A stretch of DNA of 64,000 bases from Desulfosporosinus sp. GTDB lineage: Bacteria > Bacillota > Desulfitobacteriia > Desulfitobacteriales > Desulfitobacteriaceae. This document shows positions 12,021-48,782 of the stretch, piece by piece. The stretch covers positions 5,724 to 69,723 of the forward strand of contig JAIMKP010000012.1 of assembly GCA_020692355.1 (NCBI GenBank). The letters run 5' to 3'. Position numbers and translations under genes: made by a program. The notes beneath the pieces are model-generated. The model made no database searches. It was not told the origin of the DNA and was given only the letters and a program-made list of their open reading frames with translations. Numbering within the stretch: position 1 is the stretch's first letter; each line of letters starts with the position of its first letter.

Positions 12021-12058
12021 CGAAAAGGCCCCCCTAGAATTCAACTAGGGCGGCCTTT
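12021..12058 (-). terminator. intrinsic terminator after dctM (end of the long minus-strand catabolic operon)
   Basis: GGCCGCCCTAG / CTAGGGGGGCC stem followed by TTTTCG on the minus strand, 12 nt after the dctM stop. Confidence 0.6.
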
Positions 12059-12069
12059 GATGCGTTTGT

Positions 12070-13362
12070 CTAGTGCATCAACATTTGGGGCAACCATGTC
12101 ACAATTTCCGGGAAAACCGCTATTGCTATGATGACCACAAAAACTGGCATATAGAAAGGCAATGCCGCTCGCACGACCCTCGCCATCGATAAGCCGGTCA
12201 CCCGCATGAGAGCAAAAATGACCATGCCAAACGGTGGCGTCAACTCTCCAATCATCAAGATGAGGATCATGAACACCCCGAAATGAATGGCATTCCCACC
12301 CGCTGCCACGATAAGCGGCACGATAATCGGGGTCAACAAGTTGATGGAAACGATCGAGGAGACGAAACACCCCAGGAAAAGCAGAAGCCCCGAAACCATC
12401 AGCAAAATGAGCCAATAATTGTGGGTTATCCCAAAAATATAGCTGGACAAGGTTTGGGGAATCCTCGCTCCTGTGAGAATCCAGGTAAAGATATTAGAAA
12501 CTCCCAGGATAAACATCACGACCGAACTGTCGATGGTGGTCTTCTTTAAAACCGCCCAAACTTTCTTCCAAGAGAGGCTCCGGTACACAAAGACCGCGAT
12601 GATCAAGGCATAGAAGCTAGCCACTGCGGCTGCTTCTGTGGCTGTAAAGACTCCTGACAGCATCCCTCCGATCAAAATGACCGGAGTCATCAAGGGCAAA
12701 AATCCCTGTCTGAGGCCTTGCCACACTTTGTCCCAAGTGAGATTGGGCACGACAGGATAGTTGCGCCGCCGCGCCATGATCGCTACATAAATCATAAACG
12801 AGAGTCCCATCAAGAGCCCTGGAATTATCCCGGCAATGAGCACCGCATTCACCGATGTACCCGCGAGAATCGCATACAACACGGCCGGAACGCTTGGCGG
12901 AATGATCGGGCCAATCAAAGAAACTCCAGCCACTAGGCCTGTAGCAAAATCGGCATCATACCCCTGCTCTTCCATCGGCTTGATCGCAATCGAGCCTAAC
13001 CCTGCTGCATCCGCCACGGCGGAACCGGACATACCAGCCATGATCACCCCGGAGAGGACGGTCACTTGGCCTAAGCCGCCGCGCCAGCGCCCTACGAGGG
13101 AATTGGCGAAGCCAAACAGACGCTGAGTCATGCCGGACTCATTCATCAGACGGCCCACCAGAAGGAAGAGCGGTATCGCTAATAAGCTGAAATTGTCTAA
13201 GCCATAGAGGGTCCGCTGGGCTAATACCGACCACGGAATCGAATCAATCCCGCGTGTGACCGCCAAATAGATCTCCGAACTTACTCCTAAAGCAAACGCC
13301 GCAGGCAAGCCGACAATCAAAAGAACAACCAGGGCAACCGCTAATACTAAGAATGTCATCAC
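12070..13362 (-). CDS. dctM: TRAP transporter large permease
   Basis: 430-aa 12-TM ORF, overlaps dctQ by 4 nt. Confidence 0.9.
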   Translation of the reverse strand: MMTFLVLAVALVVLLIVGLPAAFALGVSSEIYLAVTRGIDSIPWSVLAQRTLYGLDNFSLLAIPLFLLVGRLMNESGMTQRLFGFANSLVGRWRGGLGQVTVLSGVIMAGMSGSAVADAAGLGSIAIKPMEEQGYDADFATGLVAGVSLIGPIIPPSVPAVLYAILAGTSVNAVLIAGIIPGLLMGLSFMIYVAIMARRRNYPVVPNLTWDKVWQGLRQGFLPLMTPVILIGGMLSGVFTATEAAAVASFYALIIAVFVYRSLSWKKVWAVLKKTTIDSSVVMFILGVSNIFTWILTGARIPQTLSSYIFGITHNYWLILLMVSGLLLFLGCFVSSIVSINLLTPIIVPLIVAAGGNAIHFGVFMILILMIGELTPPFGMVIFALMRVTGLSMARVVRAALPFYMPVFVVIIAIAVFPEIVTWLPQMLMH

Positions 13363-13850
13363 TTACCTCCCCGGCGGACGAATGACCTAGCTGTCCCCCA
13401 AGCCTGCCAAGCCAAGAACCAGAGCATGAGGATGGCAGATACCGGGGCTGCCAGGTAAATCCAGCCCTGATTGATGGGCAGCGTGGTTAAGGGAACATCC
13501 CAGCGATCGACCGTCATATGCCAGCCCCCTAACACCAGGCTCCAGGCAAATAACGCTTCCGCCGCAATAAGCAATAGGGAGAGAAGAGCACGCAAGGCAT
13601 GCGGCCAGCGCTCTACACTACGATCCAGAATATCCACGCGCAGGTGGTCCACTTCATAAAGGGCTACCGTGGCACCCAAAAACACCGACCAGATATTCAA
13701 GTTGCGCGCCAGCTCTTCACTCCAAACCAACGGAGCATTGAGCACGTAGCGATAAAACACTCCCAGGAGAATGGTCAGGACGAAAACCCCCAAGAGCACG
13801 GTAGCAATCCATGTCAGGACATTCGACAACAGTTGATTAAACTTTGCCAT
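13359..13850 (-). CDS. dctQ: TRAP transporter small permease
   Basis: 163-aa 4-TM ORF between dctP and dctM. Confidence 0.8.
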   Translation of the reverse strand: MAKFNQLLSNVLTWIATVLLGVFVLTILLGVFYRYVLNAPLVWSEELARNLNIWSVFLGATVALYEVDHLRVDILDRSVERWPHALRALLSLLLIAAEALFAWSLVLGGWHMTVDRWDVPLTTLPINQGWIYLAAPVSAILMLWFLAWQAWGTARSFVRRGGK

Positions 13851-13883
13851 GGGCAGCTTTCCTCCTTTCCCGATCGTGTATGT

Positions 13884-14903
13884 TTACTTACCAGCAATCG
13901 CCTTCTTGGCATCCTCGGCAACCCCAGGGGCCATTTGGCTCAATACTTTGTCGACCGCAGGCTGTGCCGCTTTGACAAAGGCAGCCCGATCAGGCTCGAT
14001 GAGGGTCATCTTGTTATCCGTGGCTTTCTTGATAAATTCCTGGTTCATGGTCGTCGTTTTAGAACGAATATCCTTAATGGCATCATTGATCGCTTGACTC
14101 AACCACTGGCGCTGTTGTTCATTGAGCTTCTTCAAAGTTTTGTCGCTAATAAGCCAGGTTTGGGGAAGCATCACGTGTTTGGTGGCGATGAGGTACTTCT
14201 GATATTCCCACATTTGCCGTCCGGCGATGTTGGATAAGAAGTTCTCCTGTCCGTCCACGGTGCCGGTCTTTAACGCCGTCACAATCTCAGTCGCAGCAAT
14301 CGGCGTCGGAGAAGCTCCAATTTGTTTGAAGACATCAATCCAGCTTTGAATCTGAGGCAGGCGAATCTTAATGCCTTTCATTTCTTCTGGAGTCTTAAAC
14401 GGCTTGTTAGAAGTAAAATAGCGGGGACCAAAGTCGAACATCCCGGCATACTGCACCCCGCCCTTTTCCATGAGGATCTTCTTGATCTTGTCGCCCGTCG
14501 GGCTTGCCATATAGCGATCCATGGAATCCACATCCGGGAACAAAAACGGAATGGCAATCGCGTACATATCTTTATAGTAAAGGTCACCCATGATCGCATT
14601 GTACCCGATATCCAGTTCGCCTAGTTTCAAAAGCTCAAGAGCCTGCTTTTCATCGCCCATTTGACCAGCCATGAAAAGATCAACGTTCATCGTGCCTTTC
14701 GACAGCTCACCGAGCCGTTTCTTAAAGGTTTGCGTGATTTCGTGGTCAATCCCGGAATCTTCATCTGTGGTCGCAAATTTAAGCGTTATTTTGTCGCTCG
14801 TCTTCGTGGCTGCACTGGGAGCAGTGTTGGCCGTGCTACCGCATCCGGCCAAAGCAGTCGTGATTAATATGGTCACTAGAATCAGGGCTATCCATTTTTT
14901 CAT
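13884..14903 (-). CDS. dctP: TRAP transporter substrate-binding lipoprotein
   Basis: Start at MKKWIALILV; lipobox LAGCGS; DctP-family length. Confidence 0.85.
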   Translation of the reverse strand: MKKWIALILVTILITTALAGCGSTANTAPSAATKTSDKITLKFATTDEDSGIDHEITQTFKKRLGELSKGTMNVDLFMAGQMGDEKQALELLKLGELDIGYNAIMGDLYYKDMYAIAIPFLFPDVDSMDRYMASPTGDKIKKILMEKGGVQYAGMFDFGPRYFTSNKPFKTPEEMKGIKIRLPQIQSWIDVFKQIGASPTPIAATEIVTALKTGTVDGQENFLSNIAGRQMWEYQKYLIATKHVMLPQTWLISDKTLKKLNEQQRQWLSQAINDAIKDIRSKTTTMNQEFIKKATDNKMTLIEPDRAAFVKAAQPAVDKVLSQMAPGVAEDAKKAIAGK

Positions 14904-14960
14904 ACAAAATCCTCCCATTTCCTTCCGTTCTTCTTATCGGCTAGGCACCCATGGTTCTTG

Positions 14961-15035
14961 TCAGATCACCCCCTCTCGCTGAAACGCATCATACTGCTCG
15001 GAGCTTAGTCCCAAAAGCTTTTGACAGATAACCTG
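14961..15035 (-). pseudogene. C-terminal remnant (~25 codons) of a CaiB/BaiF family III CoA-transferase paralogue
   Basis: The minus strand reads ..QKLLGLSSEQYDAFQREGVI*. The intact paralogue ends ..KELLGLSSEQYEAFQKEELI* at 19733. By hand alignment about 64 of 78 nt are identical. Stop codons lie immediately upstream in frame. Confidence 0.7.
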
Positions 15036-15063
15036 CTTTTTTCACATTGGCTAACCGTCCTGA

Positions 15064-16716
15064 TTACTGCAAAACCGCTCCCCTATTGGCAGAAGTCACA
15101 AGCTTAGCATAACGTGCTAAATACCCGCGCGTAGCCTTGGATTCAGGCTTTACCCATCCAGCCTGCCGTTCGACCAGCTCTATTTCGCTGAGTTGAACCT
15201 CTAATTTTCGTCCCGGAATATCCAGGACAATTCTATCTCCCTCGCGCAGCAAGGCCAGCGGTCCGCCTTCCATGGCTTCGGGTGAAATATGGCCGATGCA
15301 AGCCCCGCGGGTCGCCCCGCTAAAGCGTCCGTCGGTCAAAAGAGCAACCCGCAAGCCCATGCCCGCAATCACAGCCGTAGGATTGAGCATTTCCCGCATA
15401 CCCGGCCCGCCCTTGGGTCCTTCGTAACGGATAACCACGACATCTCCATCGTTTACGAGGCCATTCATAATGCCTGCGATGGCCTCTTCCTCTGAATCAT
15501 AGACCTTAGCGGGACCCTCAAAGACCAACATGTCTTCGGCAACCGCACTTTCTTTGACGACCGCTCCGTCTGGAGCCAAATTCCCATACAAGACCGCAAT
15601 TCCACCGGTACTCCGATACGGCGTCTCAACCCTGCGGATGACATCGGGACGTTTAACATCGGCCTGTAGCAACCGTTCCTGAACCTTGCCTGTTACCGTC
15701 ATTGCCTCCGTATGAATCACACCCAGTTTTTCCAGTTCTTTCATGACAGCCGAAATTCCTCCGGCCTCGTTCAAATCTTGCAAGTGATGTGTACCCGACG
15801 GACTCAACTTAGCGATATAAGCGACCTTAAGGCTGATTTGATCGAACAAAGGCAAAGGGAGTTCTACCTCCGCTTCATGGGCAATCGCCGTCAAATGAAG
15901 GACACTATTCGAGGAGCCGCCAATTCCCATGTCCACCGCAATCGCATTCTCGAATACCTCACGTGTGAGAATATCGCGCGGTTTGACGTCTTTTCGGACT
16001 AACTCCACGGCGGTGGCCCCAGCTTTCTTGGCCAACATGCGACGTGCTCCCGTATAAGCGGCAGGGATCGTGCCATTACCCGGCAAACCCATGCCCAGCG
16101 CTTCCGTGAGACAATTCATGGTATTGGCGGTAAACAGGCCTGCACACGAACCACATCCTGGGCAAGCAGCCATTTCCAAAGCAGCCAATTCCTCATCATT
16201 GATCTTGCCCGCTTCATGTTCGCCGGTAGCCTCAAACATCGTACTCACGCTAATATCTCGACCATCATAGCGCCCTGCCAGCATCGGCCCCCCGCTGACA
16301 ACGATCGCCGGAATATTCAAACGGGCAGCGGCCATTAACATACCGGGCACGATCTTATCGCAATTCGGGATCAGGACCAACCCGTCAAATCCATGCGCCA
16401 ACGTCATGGCTTCGATTGAATCGGCAATGAGTTCTCGGCTGGCCAGAGGATACTTCATCCCAGCATGGCCCATCGCAATGCCATCACAAATCCCGATCGC
16501 CGGAAATTCGACCGGGGTTCCGCCCGCCGCTGCAATGCCCAATTTCGCCGCTTCCGCAATATCCCGCAAATGAATATGTCCTGGAATAATCTCATTAAAG
16601 GAATTGACAACACCAATCAGCGGCTTTTCCAGATCTTCCGGACGATATCCCATGGCATAAAACAGGGAGCGGTGAGCCGCACGAGTAGACCCTTTTTTAA
16701 CAATGTCACTGCGCAC
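15064..16716 (-). CDS. ilvD: dihydroxy-acid dehydratase (IlvD/Edd family)
   Basis: Typical IlvD sequence (VRSDIVKKG.., [17 protein letters not shown]). Start set to GTG 16716, 8 nt after the SD GAAGGGGGA. The longest ORF starts at a TTG inside the SD. Confidence 0.85.
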
Positions 16717-16736
16717 TTTTGCATCCCCCTTCAAAC

Positions 16737-16856
16737 TTCATCCAATCGTGAGACTCCCACTTCTACAAGTGGGAGTGGTACCTCGTACTTTGCTTCGGTG
16801 GGGGTAGACTCCCCCACCGAAGTCTCGATGTTCAACTTTAGTTGAACGAGTTCACT
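16737..16856 (-). repeat. copy A of the 120-nt three-hairpin intergenic element
   Basis: Identical to copy B over 120 nt. Lies between the adh stop and the ilvD start. Strand assigned because all copies are co-oriented with the flanking minus-strand genes. Confidence 0.9.
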
Positions 16857-17922
16857 CTGTTTTACGGATGGCCTCCGTGATCATGGCTGAACTGACAGAA
16901 TATGGCATGAACCTCATAAAAGATGTCGGCGAGAGGGCCAGTTGCGCCACGCGTTCCAACTCCTCATCCGTCAGTTTCCTATCTACTCCCAGTTCTGCCA
17001 AACTCGTCGGCAAACCAATGTTGCGATAAAAGGCCTTCAGGTGCTCAATTTCCTCAAGAGGCTGACCATCAATATGCATGAGCGCAAGAATGCCGTACGC
17101 AACTTTGATTCCATGCAACATGGCATGCGTTTCCTCAACCACCGTAAGTCCATCATGTACACCATGAGCCGCACAGGCTCGCGTAGTCTCCATCCCGAAT
17201 CCACCGACAGCCCCTGATGCTATGAAAATAGCGTCGGTGATTTGTTGCACCGCATAGGATGGATCTTTTTTCTCCATATCTTTCAACGCCTGCGAACTGT
17301 ACTGAACCAAGGTATCGAGACAGACCTTAGCCGCAGCTAAGCCCAGTTTTGTGGGCACATGATCTTCATGCCCTCTGGCACACACAATCCCTTCATACCA
17401 CTTGGCCAACGTATCCCCAATACCTGAGAGCATATAGTTGGCCGGAGAATCAGCAATGATCGCTGTATCCACCAAGGTCAACAGGGAATTTTGAGGATGG
17501 TTGATATAATCCACGAACACTCCTTGCGGGGTGTACATAACGGAAATGTGTGTTACGCAAGAACACGTCCCCGCCACGGTGGGAACAGCAACAAACGGCT
17601 TCTTCAAACGGGCAGCCACTGTTTTACTGGCATCAAGGGCCTTTCCTCCACCAACACCCATCACCAGATCAATTTCTTTTGGAGCCAGGCTTTGCAACCG
17701 TTCTACTTCTTCATAAGACGATTCACCTTGAAATGAAGCCACTTCGTACCCTAAGCCATGCTCTAGAAAGCTAGGGACCAGGAGAACGCTCGCCTTGCTC
17801 CAGGCGGTTCGGCCCCCGATAATAAACAGATTCTTTCCATATTTCTGCAGCCATTCGCCTGCCTGCCGTAGAACTCCTGACCCATGAATATAGGCATTTG
17901 CTGAAGCCATCGCTAAATGCAT
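16852..17922 (-). CDS. iron-containing alcohol dehydrogenase family protein (glycerol dehydrogenase-like)
   Basis: 356 aa with GVGGGKALDASK motif and conserved His cluster (HDGLT.. HGIKVAYG). Confidence 0.8.
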   Translation of the reverse strand: MHLAMASANAYIHGSGVLRQAGEWLQKYGKNLFIIGGRTAWSKASVLLVPSFLEHGLGYEVASFQGESSYEEVERLQSLAPKEIDLVMGVGGGKALDASKTVAARLKKPFVAVPTVAGTCSCVTHISVMYTPQGVFVDYINHPQNSLLTLVDTAIIADSPANYMLSGIGDTLAKWYEGIVCARGHEDHVPTKLGLAAAKVCLDTLVQYSSQALKDMEKKDPSYAVQQITDAIFIASGAVGGFGMETTRACAAHGVHDGLTVVEETHAMLHGIKVAYGILALMHIDGQPLEEIEHLKAFYRNIGLPTSLAELGVDRKLTDEELERVAQLALSPTSFMRFMPYSVSSAMITEAIRKTE

Positions 17923-17940
17923 AAATCCGCCCCCTATCTA

Positions 17941-18060
17941 TTCATCCAATCGTGAGACTCCCACTTCTACAAGTGGGAGTGGTACCTCGTACTTTGCTTC
18001 GGTGGGGGTAGACTCCCCCACCGAAGTCTCGATGTTCAACTTTAGTTGAACGAGTTCACT
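17941..18060 (-). repeat. copy B of the 120-nt three-hairpin intergenic element
   Basis: Identical to copy A. Lies between the MFS stop and the adh start. Confidence 0.9.
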
Positions 18061-18120
18061 AGAATCACTTGACTTCATAAGCTCTTCTAAGCGCTTTTAA
18101 GCTCTCCTTTAGCGTTATGC

Positions 18121-19428
18121 TTATGCGTTCTTACTGTTACCCCCTAAGTGAGAAACACTCACATGCTCTTTACGGATAGCCAGGACTAATAGGGTAGTAG
18201 CGATCAGTGAACCGCTGAGGAAATAGAGTCCTGATGTCATGGACCCGGTGGCCCCCTTTAGGGCACCCAACGCATAGGGGCCTACGAAACCACCCAGATT
18301 TCCAATGGAGTTAATGACGGCAATCCCCACAGCAGCCGCCTCTTCAGCCAGAAACATCGGTGGCAAGGACCAGAAGGAACCAAAAAAGCTATAAATTCCT
18401 GCCGTGGCTATTGAAAGCATGGCAACGGAAACGTAGGGATTGGTAGTCATTCCTGCTCCGATCAGAGCGGCAGCTCCGATTAGGGGTGGAATAGCAGTAT
18501 GATAACGACGCTCACCCGTTTTATCTGAATGACGAGCCACGAGAACCATGGAAATTCCCCCGACAACATAGGGAATCATCGTAATAAACCCAACCATCTG
18601 ATTGCTACCCGTCTTGGAAAAAGCTTTAACGATCTGTGGCAACCAGAAACCAATCCCGTAAAGTCCAACGACAAGCGTCAAATAGATAGCTGATAAATGC
18701 CAAACCCTAGGGTTAACAAACACCTGCAATTTGCTGAGTTGCTTTACTTGGGGTTTAGCTTTTTGCTCGCTCTCTAATTCTGCAATGAGCCAGTTTTTCT
18801 CTTCCGAACTCAACCAATGCGCCTTTTCCGGCCGATCGGTCATAAAGATCAGCGTAATAATCCCAAAAAGAATAGCCGGTGAACCCTCCAGAATGAACAG
18901 CCAGCGCCAACCGTGTAAGCCCAGGGCATTAAATCCCAAAATCCAGGTGGATATAGGAGCGCCGATGATGTTGGAAGCAGCCAAAGCCGTCATAAAAAAT
19001 GCAAAGGCTCTGGCTTGTTGTTTTGCTGGAAACCAATAGGTAATGTAAAGAATAATCCCTGGGAAAAAGCCTGCTTCGGCCACCCCCAACAGAAAACGCA
19101 GAATGTAGAGATGCGTTGCGTTCGAGACCCAAGCCGTGACGATGACAACAATCCCCCAGGAAATCATAATTCGGGCAATCCAAACTCTTGCTCCGATACG
19201 ATGCATAAGAATATTGCTGGGAACTTCAAAGATAAAATAACCGAGGAAAAAGATACCCGAGATAAGACCGAAAACCGCACTGCTGAGGCCAAGTTCCTTG
19301 TTCATCGTGAGCGCTGCATAACCCAGATTGACTCGATCCAAGAAGGCAATAATATAGAGCACGAAAATAAATGGAATGATGTGACGGCTGACTTTACGCA
19401 GAGTAAGTTGTCCCAGAGCAGAATCCAT
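18121..19428 (-). CDS. MFS transporter, anion:cation symporter (ACS)-like, probable organic-acid uptake
   Basis: 435-aa 12-TM ORF. The N-terminal FLDRVNLGYA motif is typical of the ACS subfamily (tartrate/galactonate-type). Confidence 0.8.
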   Translation of the reverse strand: MDSALGQLTLRKVSRHIIPFIFVLYIIAFLDRVNLGYAALTMNKELGLSSAVFGLISGIFFLGYFIFEVPSNILMHRIGARVWIARIMISWGIVVIVTAWVSNATHLYILRFLLGVAEAGFFPGIILYITYWFPAKQQARAFAFFMTALAASNIIGAPISTWILGFNALGLHGWRWLFILEGSPAILFGIITLIFMTDRPEKAHWLSSEEKNWLIAELESEQKAKPQVKQLSKLQVFVNPRVWHLSAIYLTLVVGLYGIGFWLPQIVKAFSKTGSNQMVGFITMIPYVVGGISMVLVARHSDKTGERRYHTAIPPLIGAAALIGAGMTTNPYVSVAMLSIATAGIYSFFGSFWSLPPMFLAEEAAAVGIAVINSIGNLGGFVGPYALGALKGATGSMTSGLYFLSGSLIATTLLVLAIRKEHVSVSHLGGNSKNA

Positions 19429-19456
19429 AAGTAATTCCTCCTTATTTTTTTTATAT

Positions 19457-19556
19457 TTACCCTGGCCGAGATTCGACTTTGATCACTTCTCGTTAAAACC
19501 CGCAGTCCGGTCAAAGACTCTTGCTCAATCCCCTTCCTCCCTTCTTGCTGCGGCAT
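19457..19556 (-). pseudogene. N-terminal remnant of a CaiB/BaiF family III CoA-transferase paralogue (internally deleted and frameshifted)
   Basis: The minus strand reads MPQQEGRKGIEQESLTGLRVL, then in another frame EVIKVESRPG*. The intact neighbour has PLAGLRVLE..(20 aa)..AEVIKIEPRQG. Confidence 0.6.
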
Positions 19557-19732
19557 TTTTTTATATAATACTCGCCAGTTCTCCGCTATTATGGTAGCAC
19601 ACAGCGAACTTTGGGAGCAAGCTTTTTTACATGGTTCGTCTTCATCGGCATTGCTCAAAACACGGATCCAGGTCGCACGGATGAACGATGTTGCTTGAAT
19701 CTCGCTGACTTCGACTTTTTCTGGTCACTGCA

Positions 19733-20923
19733 TCAGATCAGCTCCTCTTTCTGAAACGCCTCATACTGCTCGGAGCTAAGTCCCAACAGTTCTTTGTAGA
19801 TAACCTCGTTATCCGCGCCAATCCCCGGCCCTGCCCAACGAATCTGCCCAGGGGTATCACTCAGTATCGGTACAACCCCTGGCATCAGCATTTTGCCAAT
19901 CCGAGGATCGAAAAACTCCCGGATCATCCCGCGCGCTTGAAACTGAGGATCAGCTGCAATGTCGGCAATGCTGTAAACCGGTCCGCATGGCACACCTGCT
20001 TTTTCCAACTTTGCTAAAGTTTCTTGCGCATCCAGACCCCTTACCCACGCGCTGATGATCTCATCGAGCTCTTGGACATGGGCTACACGCGCTGGATTAT
20101 CCAGAAAACGCGGGTCGGTTGCAAGCTCCGACTTGCCCATCAACGCTGTGAAGCGCCGAAAAATCCCGTCCCCGTTCGCTCCAATGGCGATCCACTTATC
20201 ATCTTTGCTTAAGTACATGTTGGATGGTGCCGCCACTGAAAGGATATTCCCTGTCCGCTCCCGGATAACACCGTATTTCCCGTACTCGGGCAAAATCCCT
20301 TCCAGCAGGTTAAACACTGATTCCGTGAGGGCCACATCGACAACTTGCCCCTTGCCGGTCCTACCGCATCTTTTCAATGCGAGAAGTGTGCCAATCACGG
20401 CATGCAGAGCCGCAATTTCATCTCCTATTGCCAGCCCAACCCTTACCGGTGGACGATCCGGATATCCGGTAAGATAACGAATCCCGCCCATGGATTCCGC
20501 AATGTTGCCAAAACCCGGTCGCTCACGATAGGGTCCAGTTTGGCCATATCCGGAAATCCGCACCATGATAAGTTTTGGATTAACAGCCTTTAACTCCTCA
20601 TACCCGAGCCCCCATTCCTCCAGCTTTCCCGGGCGAAAATTTTCTATAACAACATCACAAGTTTGCACTAAGCGCTGTACTACCTCCTTCGCTTTGGGTT
20701 TTTTCAAATCCAAGGTAATACATCTCTTGTTACGCGCCTGGACCAGGGACCATAAGGACCCCGCTTCACTGGGAAGCCCCCAAGTACGTAACGGGTCTCC
20801 CTGCCGTGGTTCGATTTTAATGACTTCTGCACCAAAGTCAGCCATCATGCGAGCTGCTAGAGGGCCTGCGATCAACTGACCCATTTCTAAAACTCGCAGT
20901 CCGGCTAAAGGCCCCTTCTCCAT
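19733..20923 (-). CDS. CaiB/BaiF family III CoA-transferase
   Basis: 396 aa with GLRVLEMGQLIAGP N-terminus and conserved family III features. Confidence 0.9.
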   Translation of the reverse strand: MEKGPLAGLRVLEMGQLIAGPLAARMMADFGAEVIKIEPRQGDPLRTWGLPSEAGSLWSLVQARNKRCITLDLKKPKAKEVVQRLVQTCDVVIENFRPGKLEEWGLGYEELKAVNPKLIMVRISGYGQTGPYRERPGFGNIAESMGGIRYLTGYPDRPPVRVGLAIGDEIAALHAVIGTLLALKRCGRTGKGQVVDVALTESVFNLLEGILPEYGKYGVIRERTGNILSVAAPSNMYLSKDDKWIAIGANGDGIFRRFTALMGKSELATDPRFLDNPARVAHVQELDEIISAWVRGLDAQETLAKLEKAGVPCGPVYSIADIAADPQFQARGMIREFFDPRIGKMLMPGVVPILSDTPGQIRWAGPGIGADNEVIYKELLGLSSEQYEAFQKEELI

Positions 20924-20947
20924 TCCCTTCTACCTCCCCTGCTGAGA

Positions 20948-21811
20948 TCAAACTTTGTGCACAGCGTTTAATAGTAGCTTCTCCGCTTCTTCAAGCTTCT
21001 CCAGATTGATCCCGGTTTTTACCCCCATTTCCTCTAAAAACTCAACCAAAAGTTTAGTGGACAAATTGCCCGGAGCACCCGGCGCGTAGGGGCAACCTCC
21101 TAAACCGCCGATCGAAGCGTCAAAGGCGGTGGCTCCGCCTTCCAATGCTGCCAAAACATTCGCTAAACCGAACCCCCTCCGGTCATGAAAATGAGCAGAG
21201 AGCTTGAGGCCAGGATAAGCCAAAGCCAGACTCTGGAAAACCTCATAGACCTGCCGCGGCTGAGCTACCCCGATGGTATCAGCCAGGCCTATTTCTTCCA
21301 CTCCCATACGGACATACCATTCTGCCTGCCAGATGACCCGTTCCCTAGGAACTGCTATTTCAAACGGGCAACCAAACGCCGTGGCTATGTCACCCCGGAC
21401 ACGAATGCCATCCGCATGGGCACGTTCCACAATGGCCTCGAAATCCCGCATGGATTCTTCGGTCGTCCGGTTCAGATTCGCCTTGTTGTGGCTTTCGCTA
21501 GCCGATGCTACGAGATCGACAAAACGAATTCCAGCTTCCTTTGCTCTTTCATACCCACGCATATTGGGCACGAGCGCATTCCAAATCACCTTGGATACTG
21601 ACGGAAGCCTCAACGCCAAGGCATCGGCATCGCTCAAAGCCGGGATCCATTTCGGATGTACAAACGAGGTCGCTTGAATCGCGCTAAATCCCGCCTGGGA
21701 TAAACAAACGGCTACTGCCAGCTTCGTTTCCGTGCTGACAATGATCGGTTCATCCTGAAGCCCATCCCTGAGTCCAACTTCAATGACTTCTACTGTTTGT
21801 GGCCAATCCGT
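20948..21811 (-). CDS. hydroxymethylglutaryl-CoA lyase-like (HMGL/DRE-TIM) lyase; start codon unresolved
   Basis: The open frame extends 58 codons upstream of the first TTG (21637). That extension encodes the conserved N-terminus DWPQTVEVIEVGLRDGLQDE. It contains no in-frame ATG/GTG/TTG. The GAGGAGG SD at 21820-21826 lies 8 nt before an ACG codon. Confidence 0.65.
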   Translation of the reverse strand, partial: TDWPQTVEVIEVGLRDGLQDEPIIVSTETKLAVAVCLSQAGFSAIQATSFVHPKWIPALSDADALALRLPSVSKVIWNALVPNMRGYERAKEAGIRFVDLVASASESHNKANLNRTTEESMRDFEAIVERAHADGIRVRGDIATAFGCPFEIAVPRERVIWQAEWYVRMGVEEIGLADTIGVAQPRQVYEVFQSLALAYPGLKLSAHFHDRRGFGLANVLAALEGGATAFDASIGGLGGCPYAPGAPGNLSTKLLVEFLEEMGVKTGINLEKLEEAEKLLLNAVHKV

Positions 21812-21876
21812 TTAAATCGCCTCCTCGTCACCATTAAATTAAATGAATGCCAATTGTTTTTCTACTATTCTGATTA

Positions 21877-21892
21877 TGCAAAAAACATGCCA
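21877..21892 (-). promoter_or_regulatory. sigma-54 (-24/-12) promoter driving the HMGL-like/CoA-transferase operon
   Basis: The minus strand reads TGGCATGTTTTTTGCA, matching TGGCAC-N5-TTGCW with correct GG/GC spacing. It lies ~65 nt upstream of the operon SD and is divergent from a sigma-54 activator gene. Confidence 0.7.
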
Positions 21893-21944
21893 CTAAGAAA
21901 AAGGACGGTATACTTGACTTAATGCCTCCTAGATCTTATAATCC

Positions 21945-22044: not shown

Positions 22045-23904
22045 ATGTGTCCGACGATCGGTGTTTTCTGTTATCGGGAACTGGGATACCTCATTAAGGC
22101 ACTGCAGTATAATCTTCCCAGCTCCGTTAAATTGCTGATAAGAGACGGCGTTGTACTTGAGAAAGCCTTGAATATAGCCAGAAAATTAGAAGATAAGCAT
22201 GAAGTCGATGTCATTCTATCCTCGGGAGGGAATGCCAGACTTCTATCTCAGAATTTAAAAACACCTGTAGTCGACATTGCAATTACTGGCTTCGATGTCC
22301 TTTTTGCTTTAAAAAAAGCACAGGAATTCTCCACTACAGCGGCAATTGTTACTTACCAAAGTAAACTCCCCCACTTAGAAAAAGTCAAAGACCTGTTGAC
22401 CGTGCCTCCGAAGGAACTAATCTTTGCGCATCCAGAATCGATCGGGCCAATTCTGGATGCGTTGAAGAGCGAAGGCATTAACACAGTCATAGGTGGTAGT
22501 TTGGTCCTCGAAGCGGCTCGGCAGAAAGATATGCGTGGGATCTTTATCTATTCTATGGATGGCGTTGAGCGCGCCCTGGATATGGCCGTGCAAATTGCTT
22601 TTTCCAAACACTTAGAAACAGAGAAGGCAGAGCAGCTTCGGACTATTTTAGATTTTGCTTATGGAGGAATCATTGCTACCGATAAGTCGGGAACCGTTAC
22701 TGTTTTTAACCCAAGCGCAGAAAAAATTACCGGTATTTCCCGCCACACGATAATAGGGCAAAATATTGAACAATTTCTTCCGACCACCCGGCTAACGCAA
22801 GTGATGAAAACGGGTCAGTCAGAACTGAACAAACTACAGGCCATAGGGGAAGTCCATATTCTTACGAATCGAATCCCTATTATTGTCAAAAGCGATATAA
22901 CTGGAGCAGTTGCCACCTTTCAGGACATCGGTAGCATTCAGGAGGCTGAAGAGCAGATTCGCAAGAGATTATACGAAAAAGGGTTTTTAGCCAAGGCACA
23001 TTTGACGGATATTCTAGGCAACAGCGAGTCCTTGTTACAGGTTAAGAGACAAGCAGCACTCTATGCTCCGAACAGCTCGACGGTACTCATCCTGGGGGAG
23101 TCGGGTACGGGTAAGGAACTGTTTGCCCAAGCGATCCACAATGCCAGTTCACGTTCACCACGACCGTTTGTTGCGATAAACTGCGCAGCTCTGCCAGAGA
23201 ATCTTTTAGAGAGCGAATTGTTTGGCTACGCTGACGGCGCTTTCACCGGAGCCAAAAAAGGTGGCAAACCAGGGCTGTTCGAGTTGGCCCATGCAGGAAC
23301 AATTTTTTTGGATGAAATTGGGGAAATCTCCATGTCCATTCAGGCCAGACTCCTGAGAGTCCTGGAAGAACATGAAGTAATGCGCATTGGTGGCGACCGT
23401 ATCATTCCCGTCGACATTCGGGTTATAGCCGCAACAAATAAACATCTCTGGCAGATGGTAGAACATGGGGTCTTTAGGGAAGACCTCTATTATCGGTTGA
23501 ACATCCTGACCCTTGTGCTGCCATCGTTGAGGATGCGACGAACCGATATGGCCTTGCTCGTGCATAAATTCTTATCGGAACTAAGGCCAGACTTAACTGA
23601 CAACGAAATTAAGAGGATTTCTGAACAACCAGGTTTCCAGGACTATGATTGGCCCGGTAATGTCAGGGAACTGAAAAATTTCGTTGAGAGGTTTTCCGTA
23701 CTTTTGACTCCTGGAACGGATGCTCATTCTTTGTTCGAGTCACTGCTCGTCATGGTTCAGTCAGAGAGAATATTGAGTGACGATGATGAGGAGGAAATTG
23801 AGAATGTATTGCGAAGTGTTCAGGGCAATAAAACTGAAGCAGCCAAAAGGCTGGGCATTAGCCGTACGACTTTATGGAGACGGATGAGAGGGAAAACCCA
23901 CTAA
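22045..23904 (+). CDS. sigma-54-dependent transcriptional activator with PrpR-type N-terminal sensor, PAS, AAA+ and Fis-type HTH domains
   Basis: GESGTGKE Walker A, GAFTGA loop (DGAFTGA) and C-terminal HTH ([16 protein letters not shown]). GAAAGGGGG SD lies 8 nt upstream. Confidence 0.9.
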
Positions 23905-23995: not shown

Positions 23996-25735
23996 TTAAG
24001 GATGATAGGGTGGTATCATGCCTGTAAAGACATAGGCCTGCAACCAGACCAAAATGCCCATGAGAATCGCTAAAGCCACACTATGCCAGAAGACTTTTCG
24101 GAAAATGACGCCGATGGCATCCACACCCTCATCCGGATTTTCATAACAGGCAACTGTGGCCACGGTAATGCTCTGGGCATCAATCATTTTACCCATTACA
24201 CCACCGGTACTATTCGCCGTTACGATCAAGAGCGGATTCAAACCGAGCTGATTTGCCGTAATCTGCTGCAGACTACCGAACATCGCGTTAGATGCCGTAT
24301 CACTGCCCGTCAAAAATACACCCAACCAACCAATCATGACGGCAAAGAACGGATACAGCATTCCGGTTTTCGCGAAGGCCAAACCGAGAATCGCATCGGT
24401 TCCAGCATAGCGCGTCATATAGCCCAAACCAACCACGGTAGCAATCACCGTAAGCGGCACTTTTAGACGGGTAACGGTTCTGATAAAGATTTCTCTCCAT
24501 TGAGTAGCCGTCACTTTGAGGAAGAATATACCGGACAAGAAAGCAGCAATCAAAATTCCCGTACCCGCCATCGTTAGGAGATTGAAACTGTAACTTGCCC
24601 CTTCTGCGGCTTTCGCTACAGCCGTCGGTGACACGGGAGCCGTCCTAAAGACCACCCCAGCCAGGTAAGGAACTTTAAACGTCGGATTGAAAAGGTGATT
24701 CAAGAAAGTCTTCACAGAGGGAAGACCCCAAAGGAAAACAAAGATCGCTAAAAAGACCCAAGGAATCCAAGCCTTGAACAGGTCTTCTCCCGAATGTTTG
24801 GGAATTACGACTCTTGCTTTAACAGGCTTGCCGTCAAGCGCTGCATAAGCCATTTCATTCGTAATAACATTCTTGGGTTGCCAGAATTTAAGGAAAATAG
24901 CCGTAACGATGATGCTAAAAAGGCCTGCTACAATATCCACGAGCATGGTGATGCCGAACTCAGCCATAGTGAACTGTGCCGCTGCGAAGGAAACACCCGT
25001 CACTAAAGTAGCGGGCCATACTTCCCAAACGTCCTTCCACTTGCCCTTTTCCATAAGAACCAGCGTCGCTACCAACCAAAATGGTACGATAACTGAGAAG
25101 AACGGCAATTGACGGCCTGCCATTTGTGTAATCAACTGATGAGGAATGCCCGTCAATGCTCCCAAGGTCAAAATAGGGGTACCAATCGCTCCCCAAGCCA
25201 CAGGGGCTGTATTGGCCACCAAGCAAATTACAGCCGCCGTCAAAGGGCGGAATCCCAAACCAACCATGATCGCACCAGCCACAGCAACCGGCGTTCCGAA
25301 GCCAGCGGCTCCCTCCATAAATGCCCCAAAACTGAAAGCAACAATAAGTGCTTGTAAGCGTCGATCAGGAGTGATTCCGGCGATGGAGTCTTTAAGAATC
25401 TCAAACCTACCCGTAACCAGAGTCATCGTATAAAGGAAAATCGCTCCAAAGACAATCCAGCCAATCGGAAAAAGCCCGCTGAGAGCGCCGTAGCCAAAAG
25501 CGGCCAGCGCAGATTGAGCCGGCATGTTCATCCCAAAAACGATCACAACCAAAGCGACAAGTGCCGCTAGGATAGCCGCATAGGGAGCATAAATTCCCAA
25601 AACTCTGCGACCGGATTTACCCTTGTGTGGATGAAGTGCCAAGAAGTAAAGTAAAGTTACAATAGGTAACGCTGCCAATATTACGGATAAAAAGTCATTT
25701 CCCATGGGATTATAATTTTGAAGATACTTTAACAA
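23996..25735 (-). CDS. lctP: L-lactate permease (LctP family)
   Basis: Multi-TM protein; YLQNYNPMGNDFLSVILAALPIV matches the LctP N-terminus. Start placed at TTG 25735, 7 nt after GAGGGGGG. The longest ORF (to 25843) adds an implausible N-terminus. Confidence 0.8.
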   Translation of the reverse strand: MLKYLQNYNPMGNDFLSVILAALPIVTLLYFLALHPHKGKSGRRVLGIYAPYAAILAALVALVVIVFGMNMPAQSALAAFGYGALSGLFPIGWIVFGAIFLYTMTLVTGRFEILKDSIAGITPDRRLQALIVAFSFGAFMEGAAGFGTPVAVAGAIMVGLGFRPLTAAVICLVANTAPVAWGAIGTPILTLGALTGIPHQLITQMAGRQLPFFSVIVPFWLVATLVLMEKGKWKDVWEVWPATLVTGVSFAAAQFTMAEFGITMLVDIVAGLFSIIVTAIFLKFWQPKNVITNEMAYAALDGKPVKARVVIPKHSGEDLFKAWIPWVFLAIFVFLWGLPSVKTFLNHLFNPTFKVPYLAGVVFRTAPVSPTAVAKAAEGASYSFNLLTMAGTGILIAAFLSGIFFLKVTATQWREIFIRTVTRLKVPLTVIATVVGLGYMTRYAGTDAILGLAFAKTGMLYPFFAVMIGWLGVFLTGSDTASNAMFGSLQQITANQLGLNPLLIVTANSTGGVMGKMIDAQSITVATVACYENPDEGVDAIGVIFRKVFWHSVALAILMGILVWLQAYVFTGMIPPYHP

Positions 25736-25968
25736 AGTCAAACCCCCCTCACAGTAAATCTGAACTTCTGAGATCCTGCCTTTTAAGAAGCTTCCTTCCC
25801 TCCTTTTTCCATATTTAGTGGCCAAATTAGCAGGCAGTGCCATTAGTTTACCTGTTGGTCAGGCCATCTATACATTATTTCAATTCGCCATCGTTTTTTG
25901 TTCTCCTGCAAGACAACAAGGATATTTCCAAAAATTTGTCGAATTGTGATTATTAACACAAATAAAGA

Positions 25969-34402: not shown

Positions 34403-34458
34403 ATCATCGCATCCTTAACAGTGTTTGCCTCCAAAAAACAAGAGAAACAACGAAACTA

Positions 34459-34578
34459 TTCACCCTATCGTGAGACTCCCACTTCTACAAGTGGGAGTGG
34501 TACCTCGTACTTTGCTTCGGTGGGGGTAGACTCCCCCACCGAAGTCTCGATGTTCAACTTTAGTTGAACGAGTTCACT
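34459..34578 (-). repeat. copy C of the 120-nt three-hairpin intergenic element
   Basis: Differs from A/B only in the last ~10 nt (ttcaccctatcg vs ttcatccaatcg on the plus strand). Lies between the GntR stop and the 4Fe-4S gene start. Confidence 0.9.
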
Positions 34579-40160: not shown

Positions 40161-40172
40161 CGAAGACCCCCT

Positions 40173-40293
40173 TTTATCTAATCGTAAGACTCCCACTTCT
40201 ACAAGTGGGAGTGGGTCCCCCATACTCTGCTTCGGTGGGGGTAGACTCCCCCACCGAAGTCTCGATGTTCAGCTTGAGCTGAACGAGTTCACT
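40173..40293 (-). repeat. copy D (divergent) of the three-hairpin intergenic element
   Basis: All three hairpins are retained and the linker has diverged. The stem base pair A-T is replaced by G-C in the GTTCA(A/G)C hairpin. Confidence 0.85.
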
Positions 40294-48641: not shown

Positions 48642-48765
48642 TTTTTTTTAAAGAAAACTTGGCTAGCGCCAAGCCTTACGGCGCTTTTGCCATCCATGGC
48701 AGCGCTCTAATCTCAAACGTCCTGTTTGAGTCGGCGACGGCGGCCGCTTAGTTGCACTTATACCA
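48642..48765 (-). ncRNA. candidate ~105-nt small RNA (extended -10 promoter to intrinsic terminator)
   Basis: The minus strand has TGGTATAAG (48757-48765), then three hairpins. The last is CTTGGC-GCTA-GCCAAG plus TTTTCTTT. No SD-preceded ORF is present. Confidence 0.25.
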
Positions 48766-48782
48766 CCCGAAATTACTTTGGT

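Follow-up and report, generated by a model that had tools for sequence, protein, structure and literature searches.

Stumps of a duplicated CoA-transferase gene flank a block of apparently native genes in a Desulfosporosinus operon

How do genes for a transporter, an alcohol dehydrogenase and a dehydratase come to lie between the two ends of a CoA-transferase gene? The question is raised by an operon in a stretch of 64,000 nucleotides (nt) of DNA from Desulfosporosinus sp. (contig JAIMKP010000012.1 of assembly GCA_020692355.1), hereafter the window. Read along the minus strand, the operon consists of a sigma-54 promoter, an intact gene resembling hydroxymethylglutaryl-CoA lyase (HMGL; H1), an intact family III (CaiB-type) CoA-transferase gene (C1), about 300 nt of non-coding DNA, a major facilitator superfamily (MFS) transporter gene, a 123-nt repeat, an iron-dependent alcohol dehydrogenase (Fe-ADH, or ADH) gene, a second copy of the repeat, an ilvD gene, about 100 nt of non-coding DNA, and the DctP-DctQ-DctM genes of a tripartite ATP-independent periplasmic (TRAP) transporter. 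The two non-coding stretches hold the N- and C-terminal stumps (c2N and c2C) of a second CaiB gene, c2, and pieces of a second lyase gene, h2; the relic of a further CaiB gene, c0, lies upstream of H1. The stumps are family III CoA-transferase (CaiB/BaiF, PF02515) pseudogene remnants, the two ends of a duplicated gene, and the intervening block appears to be assembled from genes of the organism's own lineage. Coordinates are those of the window unless another sequence is named, and the operon lies with all its remnants and repeat copies on the minus strand.

The genome of the window (G000, with contigs C11, C47 and C97) was compared with a conspecific strain (L108, NCBI GCA_030019575.1), an assembly from Logan SRR23186779 (L109), and G001, an 83%-complete metagenome-assembled genome (MAG) from the one further species of the genus in the genome set. 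Four outgroup operon loci (L106, L107, L110 and L111) were reached through DctP homologues, at 64-79% amino acid identity, in a set of 5.8 billion proteins, and L116/L117 and L123 provided the context of the ADH gene outside the genus. The significance of short remnants was judged from local alignment scores relative to shuffled controls.

A blastn search of C1 against the whole window places the C-terminal stump c2C (14961-15034) opposite 19733-19806, with 62 of 74 nt identical (83.8%) and an E value of 4.5e-17. It comprises the last 24 codons and the stop of the second CaiB gene and forms the right block junction; the pair was also recovered by a repeat search of the window, and its alignment score is 91, the best of 200 shuffles reaching 32. 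The N-terminal stump is made of two pieces. The first, c2N-a (19494-19550), is a copy of the HMGL-CaiB intergenic region, the Shine-Dalgarno (SD) sequence and the first 12 CaiB codons, and matches 20944-20888 with a score of 42 (shuffle maximum 28); within it, blastn aligns 19494-19536 with 20888-20930 at 79% of 43 nt (E 4.9e-4). The second, c2N-b (19460-19490), matches 20828-20799 with a score of 30 (shuffle maximum 28), and its end is the left block junction. Between the two pieces 59 nt have been deleted and the reading frame has shifted, and the N-terminal part also contains a stop codon. The translations SLTGLRVL, EVIKVESRPG* and KLLGLSSEQYDAFQREGVI* can be read directly in the sequence. 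Both stumps are collinear with C1, on the minus strand and with the N-terminal part before the C-terminal part, and no full protein can be encoded; what is missing between them corresponds to 20798-19807 of C1, which is 992 nt or about 330 codons. The preliminary description had proposed that the ends of a second CaiB-family gene flank the block in the correct order, that some 330 codons had given way to 4.4 kb carrying MFS, Fe-ADH and IlvD genes, and that the N-terminal stump had suffered a deletion and a frameshift, and each of these points is borne out.

Chance similarity of the stumps is ruled out by the BLAST E values and the shuffle tests, and an assembly artefact by the presence of the same structure in four independent assemblies (the window, L108, L109 and G001). 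Over the variable C-terminal 75 nt, c2 shares 83% of its positions with C1 and only 40-55% with the outgroup CaiB genes, so c2 is a lineage-specific paralogue rather than a chance match; C1 and c2 also have the derived residues LLGLSSEQY.AFQ in common. A possible extra piece of CaiB at 15031-15054 (against 19994-20017; 83% of 24 nt, E 0.88) is too weak to claim. Over the 20 codons available, a small sample, the substitutions in c2 fall 3/2/4 by codon position. The remnants of G000 and G001 are 8-11% divergent, as against 0.9-1.2% for H1 and C1, a contrast that may in part reflect a recent exchange of H1-C1 in a mosaic locus (see below). We read the stumps as probable scars, without function, of a remodelled operon, and in annotation 19460-19727 and 14961-15034 are better marked as pseudogene remnants than as small open reading frames (ORFs).

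The duplicated unit becomes apparent from the outgroup loci. In L106, L107 and L110 a single CaiB gene is followed by HMGL and DctP, and in L111 HMGL and DctPQM follow a partial, unassigned upstream gene; LeuCD-like hydratase genes have been added in some of these loci. In L106 and L107, HMGL is followed immediately by DctPQM orthologues (79% amino acid identity), and in these outgroup loci the stop codon of CaiB directly adjoins the start of the lyase gene (..GTGATTTAA / ACG in L106). L106 is syntenic with the window on both sides, with the C-terminus of the lactate-permease-family gene LctP upstream and a phospholipase C-like gene (PLC), Rce1-like, HycI, Cmk, LytB/S1 and FtsW genes downstream. 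Judged by this comparison, the ancestral locus is LctP, CaiB, HMGL, DctPQM and PLC, and the whole arrangement is still found in L106. The CaiB-HMGL order of the outgroups is opposite to the H1-C1 order of the window.

Remnants of a second lyase copy lie directly downstream of C1. The first piece of h2 (19707-19727) is the 5' start of the lyase, with 17 of 21 nt identical to 21805-21785 of H1, a score reached in 0 of 1000 shuffles; it starts six bases past the C1 stop, as at the outgroup CaiB-HMGL junctions. The second piece (19643-19706), a fragment reading ..IQATSF..W..LS.AD.., matches 21685-21622 with a local score of 58 (shuffle maximum 28), and blastn aligns 19650-19706 with 21629-21685 at 75% of 57 nt (E 4e-5). 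The two pieces are separated by a deletion of 99 nt relative to H1. The remaining spacer at 19551-19642 is unassignable and may be a decayed lyase 3' end: its weak AGCGGAGAA match to the 3' end of H1 is not significant (p=0.08), and a search of the genome for a second copy of the spacer returned none.

Upstream of H1, the 18 nt at 21812-21829 (gacgaggaggcgatttaa) are probably what is left (c0) of the 3' end of a lost CaiB gene, its final codons and stop, as judged from a junction alignment, and now provide the SD sequence for H1. The c0 junction ..GATTTAA / ACG (..GCGATTTAA / ACG) is nearly identical to the junctions of CaiB stop and HMGL start in L106 and L107, and the alignment of the c0-H1 with the C1-h2 junction scores 17.5, the maximum in 2000 shuffles being 16. 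The junction of a CaiB stop with a lyase start thus occurs twice, as c0-H1 and C1-h2, and so does the lyase-CaiB spacer with its SD sequence and CaiB start, as H1-C1 and h2-c2N. Because each type of junction occurs twice, the genus is best described as carrying a decayed head-to-tail array of at least 2.5 CaiB-HMGL units, c0-H1-C1-h2-c2. The functional order HMGL-CaiB would be reversed relative to the outgroups because only H1 and C1 survive of this array. The second CaiB copy seen in the preliminary description therefore stands, and its view that CaiB alone was duplicated does not: the unit would be CaiB plus the HMGL-like lyase, h2 at 19643-19727 having been overlooked.

What entered c2 comprises three genes. 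The first, at 18121-19428, encodes an MFS transporter of the anion:cation symporter type (Pfam MFS_1; closest to the HpaX and D-galactonate-transporter subfamilies of NCBIfam, below their cutoffs). The second, at 16852-17922, encodes a glycerol-dehydrogenase-like Fe-ADH (Pfam Fe-ADH and Fe-ADH_2) that scores 298 bits on the NCBIfam glycerol dehydrogenase subfamily model, below its cutoff of 336. The third, at 15064-16716, encodes an IlvD dihydroxy-acid dehydratase paralogue of 550 residues, read from a GTG at 16716, that passes the equivalog cutoff of NCBIfam ilvD TIGR00110 (786 bits, cutoff 618).

In the outgroups the MFS and ADH genes form a conserved pair next to a DeoR-type regulator. The order in L116/L117 is glyceraldehyde-3-phosphate dehydrogenase (GAPDH), pyruvate kinase, DeoR, MFS, ADH, a small ORF, Mrp, DUF896, M23, DegV, PBP5 and AI2E; in L123 it is DeoR, a gap, ADH, the small ORF and, further on, M23 and DegV. 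On contig C11 of G000 the GAPDH-pyruvate kinase-DeoR series is followed by about 100 nt with a terminator hairpin and then by the small ORF, M23, DegV, PBP5 and AI2E, with MFS and ADH absent. The C11 genes are 56-86% identical in amino acid sequence to those of L116, a range that spans the values for MFS (80%) and ADH (77%). Most likely, then, the MFS-ADH pair moved into c2 from its native DeoR-adjacent site, which is now empty on C11.

We also observed that at C11:48741-48842 the DeoR-type regulator, lying past GAPDH and pyruvate kinase, has been left without its presumed targets MFS and ADH and is followed by a terminator only.

IlvD has a history of its own. The block copy is 81% identical in amino acid sequence to the genome's own ilvD on C97, which is the orthologue of the stand-alone ilvD genes of the outgroups. 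A tree of IlvD proteins groups the block copy with these genes in one clade (98/96), and its branch, at 0.31, is some seven times as long as the median (0.046); it is best regarded as a fast-evolving, diverged paralogue of the housekeeping gene. Its closest homologues stand alone, adjoining neither MFS nor ADH, and its flanks show no homology to other ilvD loci past the ORF.

The preliminary description had treated the three genes as a single cassette and had looked to base composition and phylogeny for signs of separate origin. As a unit the three-gene block was not found elsewhere; the closest ADH homologues sit with MFS by DeoR and without IlvD. The GC content of the block is 45-55%, the same as that of the flanks. 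Relative to L116, MFS and ADH show the same level of divergence as the genes that once adjoined them, and the phylogeny places IlvD in its own family's clade, with no sign of a foreign source. Foreign origin of the block was rejected, there being no GC anomaly and no shared block elsewhere. At the block ends (15035/19459) we found no terminal repeat pair, inverted repeats or target duplication, and the block contains no transposase or integrase gene. By these comparisons the block is composite and largely native rather than a mobile cassette.

Two copies of the 123-nt element, which the preliminary description had linked to gene mobility, lie within the block. Copy 1 (17946-18059; repeat family D1) and copy 2 (16741-16850), whose TGAA target duplication includes the ADH stop, are both later, strain-specific insertions. 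The element folds into three hairpins and is flanked by a 4-bp TGAA/TTCA duplication; further copies lie at 34456-34578 and 40171-40293 of the window, and in G000 as a whole near-full copies number at least 49, of which 27 reach 95% identity. It matches no Rfam family, and a transposase partner was not identified. L108 and L109, which are 99.5-99.9% identical to the window and contain the stumps and the block, lack both block copies, as does G001, and all three have clean empty sites of the TGAA type. The element is best read as a recently active repeat resembling miniature inverted-repeat transposable elements (MITEs) that was inserted with the block already in place; because a strain 99.5-99.9% identical to the window keeps the block without either copy, the element is not linked to the arrival of the block. 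Another dispersed repeat, some 135 nt long, is present at 48643-48779 of the window; several contigs of G000 carry it, and G001 has it at different positions.

The second species constrains the age of these events. G001 carries the same remnants with identical breakpoints, so the remodelling predates the split of the two known species; the remnants, moreover, are 16-25% diverged from the intact copies. The event is thus not recent, contrary to what had been supposed. The sampling of the genus covers two species and one extra strain, and the same decayed state is seen in all. In G001 IlvD is reduced to two fragments, 15003-16447 being deleted, and the island (contigs C257 and C237; with C154, loci L014, L015 and L016) lies elsewhere in the chromosome, at a point corresponding to 39995-39999 of C47, where G000 is uninterrupted, accompanied by xanthine-dehydrogenase-like and URO-D-family genes. 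The original PLC/LctP site of G001 keeps only MFS, plus scars of the DctM terminator and of both ADH ends: in the 240 nt from PLC to MFS on C154 we recognize the terminator (12023-12057), the ADH 3' end (16851-16920) and the ADH start (17914-17935). That the PLC-MFS-LctP order of C154 is the ancestral state, with the island built around a native MFS gene, was considered and rejected, C154 being a deletion derivative. Campbell-type and inversion models for the transfer of the island between sites, worked through by reasoning, do not reproduce the observed order.

Divergence between the species is mosaic. In a comparison of 19590-21901 with L014, H1 and C1 differ by about 1% (2-2.5% at third codon positions); the remnants differ by 8%, DctPQM by 7% and the activator gene PrpR by 15%. 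This pattern suggests that the H1-C1 segment was recently exchanged, with a boundary near 19590. In L108 the activator gene is broken at window position 22304, where 2.8 kb of DNA (L108 1-2811) that G000 lacks leaves it only 87 codons; this DNA encodes a 703-residue protein without a Pfam match. The operon is probably not expressed in L108.

We arrange these findings into the following history, which we consider probable. An ancestral CaiB-HMGL unit gave rise, in the ancestor of the genus, to a head-to-tail array of at least 2.5 units, in which c0 shrank to about 18 nt, h2 was mostly lost by deletions, and c2 lost 59 nt near its 5' end. The central 992 nt of c2 were replaced by about 4.2-4.4 kb carrying MFS, Fe-ADH and IlvD, presumably by illegitimate recombination, because transposase, integrase, inverted repeats and target duplication are absent at the block ends. 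MFS and ADH were most likely relocated from downstream of the DeoR-type regulator, and IlvD appears to be a diverged paralogue of the housekeeping ilvD. The outcome would be the chimeric operon HMGL-CaiB-MFS-ADH-IlvD-DctPQM, and the later changes comprise loss of most of IlvD, and a second island copy, in G001, truncation of the activator in one strain, and two 123-nt insertions in the strain of the window. A bolder reading, in which tandem duplication and differential loss permuted the gene order, leaving a legible scar of each lost copy, and a dying copy then served as a neutral landing pad, bringing the DeoR pair and an ilvD paralogue under sigma-54/PrpR control in a new catabolic pathway, is one to which we give slightly less than even odds.

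Several observations weigh against the proposed history. An intact array or an uninterrupted second CaiB gene was found in no genome, and the state before the insertion is therefore a reconstruction. The preliminary description had looked to relatives for an intact tandem pair of CaiB genes followed by dctPQM; none was found, and outside the genus an intact second CaiB or an intermediate was represented by nothing above 70% amino acid identity among 40 GTDB relatives, genome contigs, DctP homologues and metagenome contigs, the last scanned with a degenerate CaiB C-terminal pattern that also returned no intact array. If the array were strictly of the CaiB-HMGL type, a further lyase copy should precede DctP, but the 42 nt that follow c2C hold no detectable trace of one; similarity to the outgroup HMGL-DctP spacer is confined to the ~16 nt nearest DctP (p=0.02). 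The history therefore has to allow for one more deletion or for another route of duplication. The tail of c0 measures only ~18 nt, and its part before the stop is not significant by itself (p=0.24). Two outgroup lineages are all that indicates in which direction MFS-ADH moved, and the DeoR site was not recovered in the G001 MAG, whose incompleteness also means that its two-locus arrangement could partly reflect mixed strains.

The same data can be arranged in other ways. A homologous HMGL-CaiB pair, perhaps together with PrpR, could have come from a close relative by horizontal transfer and recombination, before or after the block struck the native CaiB; the stumps would then be the native orthologue and the intact pair the newcomer, and no tandem duplication would be needed. 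The mosaic divergence of the island shows recombination with other lineages at this locus, PrpR is absent from the syntenic outgroup L106, and the C-terminal stump ends in ..REGVI*, like the outgroups (EGVI*, NGVI*, REGVI*), where the intact gene ends in ..KEELI*. The last point is countered by G001, whose intact gene ends in ..EEVI, so that the L is a very recent change. A donor would also have to be a very close relative, given the derived residues that C1 shares with c2 and their 83% nucleotide identity (at most 55% to outgroups), and the repeated junctions are the product expected of head-to-tail duplication; we consider such a transfer unlikely. A related possibility keeps the array and lets the N- and C-terminal stumps derive from two different CaiB copies of a longer one, the block having replaced the end of one copy, a lyase and the start of the next. 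It would account for the lyase missing before DctP and agrees with an array of at least 2.5 units, multi-copy amplification arrays being common intermediates, but it calls for one unit more than the data require, and nothing in the sequence separates the stumps, both of which are about 80-84% identical to C1. We regard it as improbable.

Least probable of all, to the point that we give it hardly any weight, is that MFS-ADH-IlvD was a mobile cassette carried into CaiB by the 123-nt elements or by some other mobile element. Two identical copies of a dispersed repeat inside the block, and an island found whole at different chromosomal sites in two species, are what such a cassette might leave, but L108, L109 and G001 keep block and stumps without either copy, and the copies lie between genes within the block and not at its ends. 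The bare block ends, the unremarkable GC content and the separate occurrence of the three genes elsewhere, described above, point the same way. 

The operon itself is organized around H1 (20948-21811; 287 codons, Pfam HMGL-like, 329 bits on NCBIfam NF004283 with a cutoff of 246) and C1 (19733-20923; 396 residues, full-length Pfam CoA_transf_3 match with E 4e-127), the latter far under every NCBIfam equivalog cutoff. The DctP, DctQ and DctM genes (12070-14918, assigned by Pfam) are its ancestral 3' part, and the Zn-phospholipase-C-like PLC gene follows DctM beyond the 3' end. A sigma-54 type -24/-12 promoter, TGGCAT-N5-TTGCAT, can be read at 21876-21892. Divergent from it lies the gene for a PrpR-like activator (22045-23904, plus strand), with PrpR_N, PAS, Sigma54_activat and HTH_8 domains, and LctP (23996-25843) lies upstream of the operon. 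Membership in a sigma-54 operon is thus indicated both by the promoter and by a divergent gene for a bacterial enhancer-binding protein with the Sigma54_activat AAA+ domain and a helix-turn-helix. Because no convincing intrinsic terminator was found within the operon, HMGL-CaiB-MFS-ADH-IlvD-DctPQM is probably transcribed as a whole from the sigma-54 promoter under the PrpR-like activator. An Rfam scan of the region gave no match.

The 5' end of H1 has no ATG, GTG or TTG nearby. An ACG at 21809-21811 follows a stop codon and lies 8 nt past the SD sequence GAGGAGG, and it is probably the start. The same position is ACG in L106 (1740-1750) and L107 (6659-6670) and ATG in L110 and L111, which suggests that a non-canonical start has been conserved here and that initiation was once coupled to the end of translation of the CaiB gene upstream.

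In Chloroflexus, succinyl-CoA:(R)-citramalate CoA-transferase and (R)-citramalyl-CoA lyase act as a pair in hydroxy-dicarboxylate breakdown. The adjoining family III CoA-transferase and HMGL-family lyase described here resemble that pair, with the addition of a TRAP-type carboxylate importer, and by this analogy citramalate, hydroxymethylglutarate or another branched hydroxy-dicarboxylate is a plausible substrate. The Chloroflexus pathway is not known to have a counterpart to the MFS, GldA-like ADH and IlvD genes added in Desulfosporosinus.

The locus can also be set beside known modes of gene rearrangement. Scars of illegitimate recombination likewise consist of short 5' and 3' fragments of one gene that flank unrelated genes in the right order and on the right strand, with frameshifts and deletions; here, in contrast, the gene that was broken had a tandem duplicate, so that nothing was lost, and most of what was inserted consists of genes native to the organism rather than of foreign or mobile DNA. 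The tandem duplication-random loss (TDRL) model of gene order, described for mitochondrial genomes, and gene amplification and decay in bacteria share with our reconstruction a two-gene unit multiplied head to tail and the decay of different members. Unlike the cases described by the TDRL model, the present one concerns a bacterial catabolic operon in which the decaying copies are still visible and one of them served as a landing site for other genes. A single literature search joining TDRL terms with operon and bacteria returned papers on mitochondrial genomes only. The hairpins, 4-bp duplication and insertion polymorphism between near-identical strains liken the 123-nt element to MITEs and to repetitive extragenic palindromic (REP)-like repeats, a likeness separate from the event that produced the stumps and the block.

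For the biology of this lineage, the locus would show an operon rebuilt without mobile elements or foreign DNA, with every junction still readable. Duplication would have supplied redundant copies, one of which could take an insertion at no cost, and native genes may thereby have switched regulon, from DeoR to sigma-54/PrpR. Decay of the array would account for a gene order reversed relative to that in related genomes, and a false lead is removed, since the block did not arrive by way of the 123-nt element. The understanding of genome evolution is unchanged by this case, which is an ordinary but unusually legible operon remodelling and may serve as a clear worked example.

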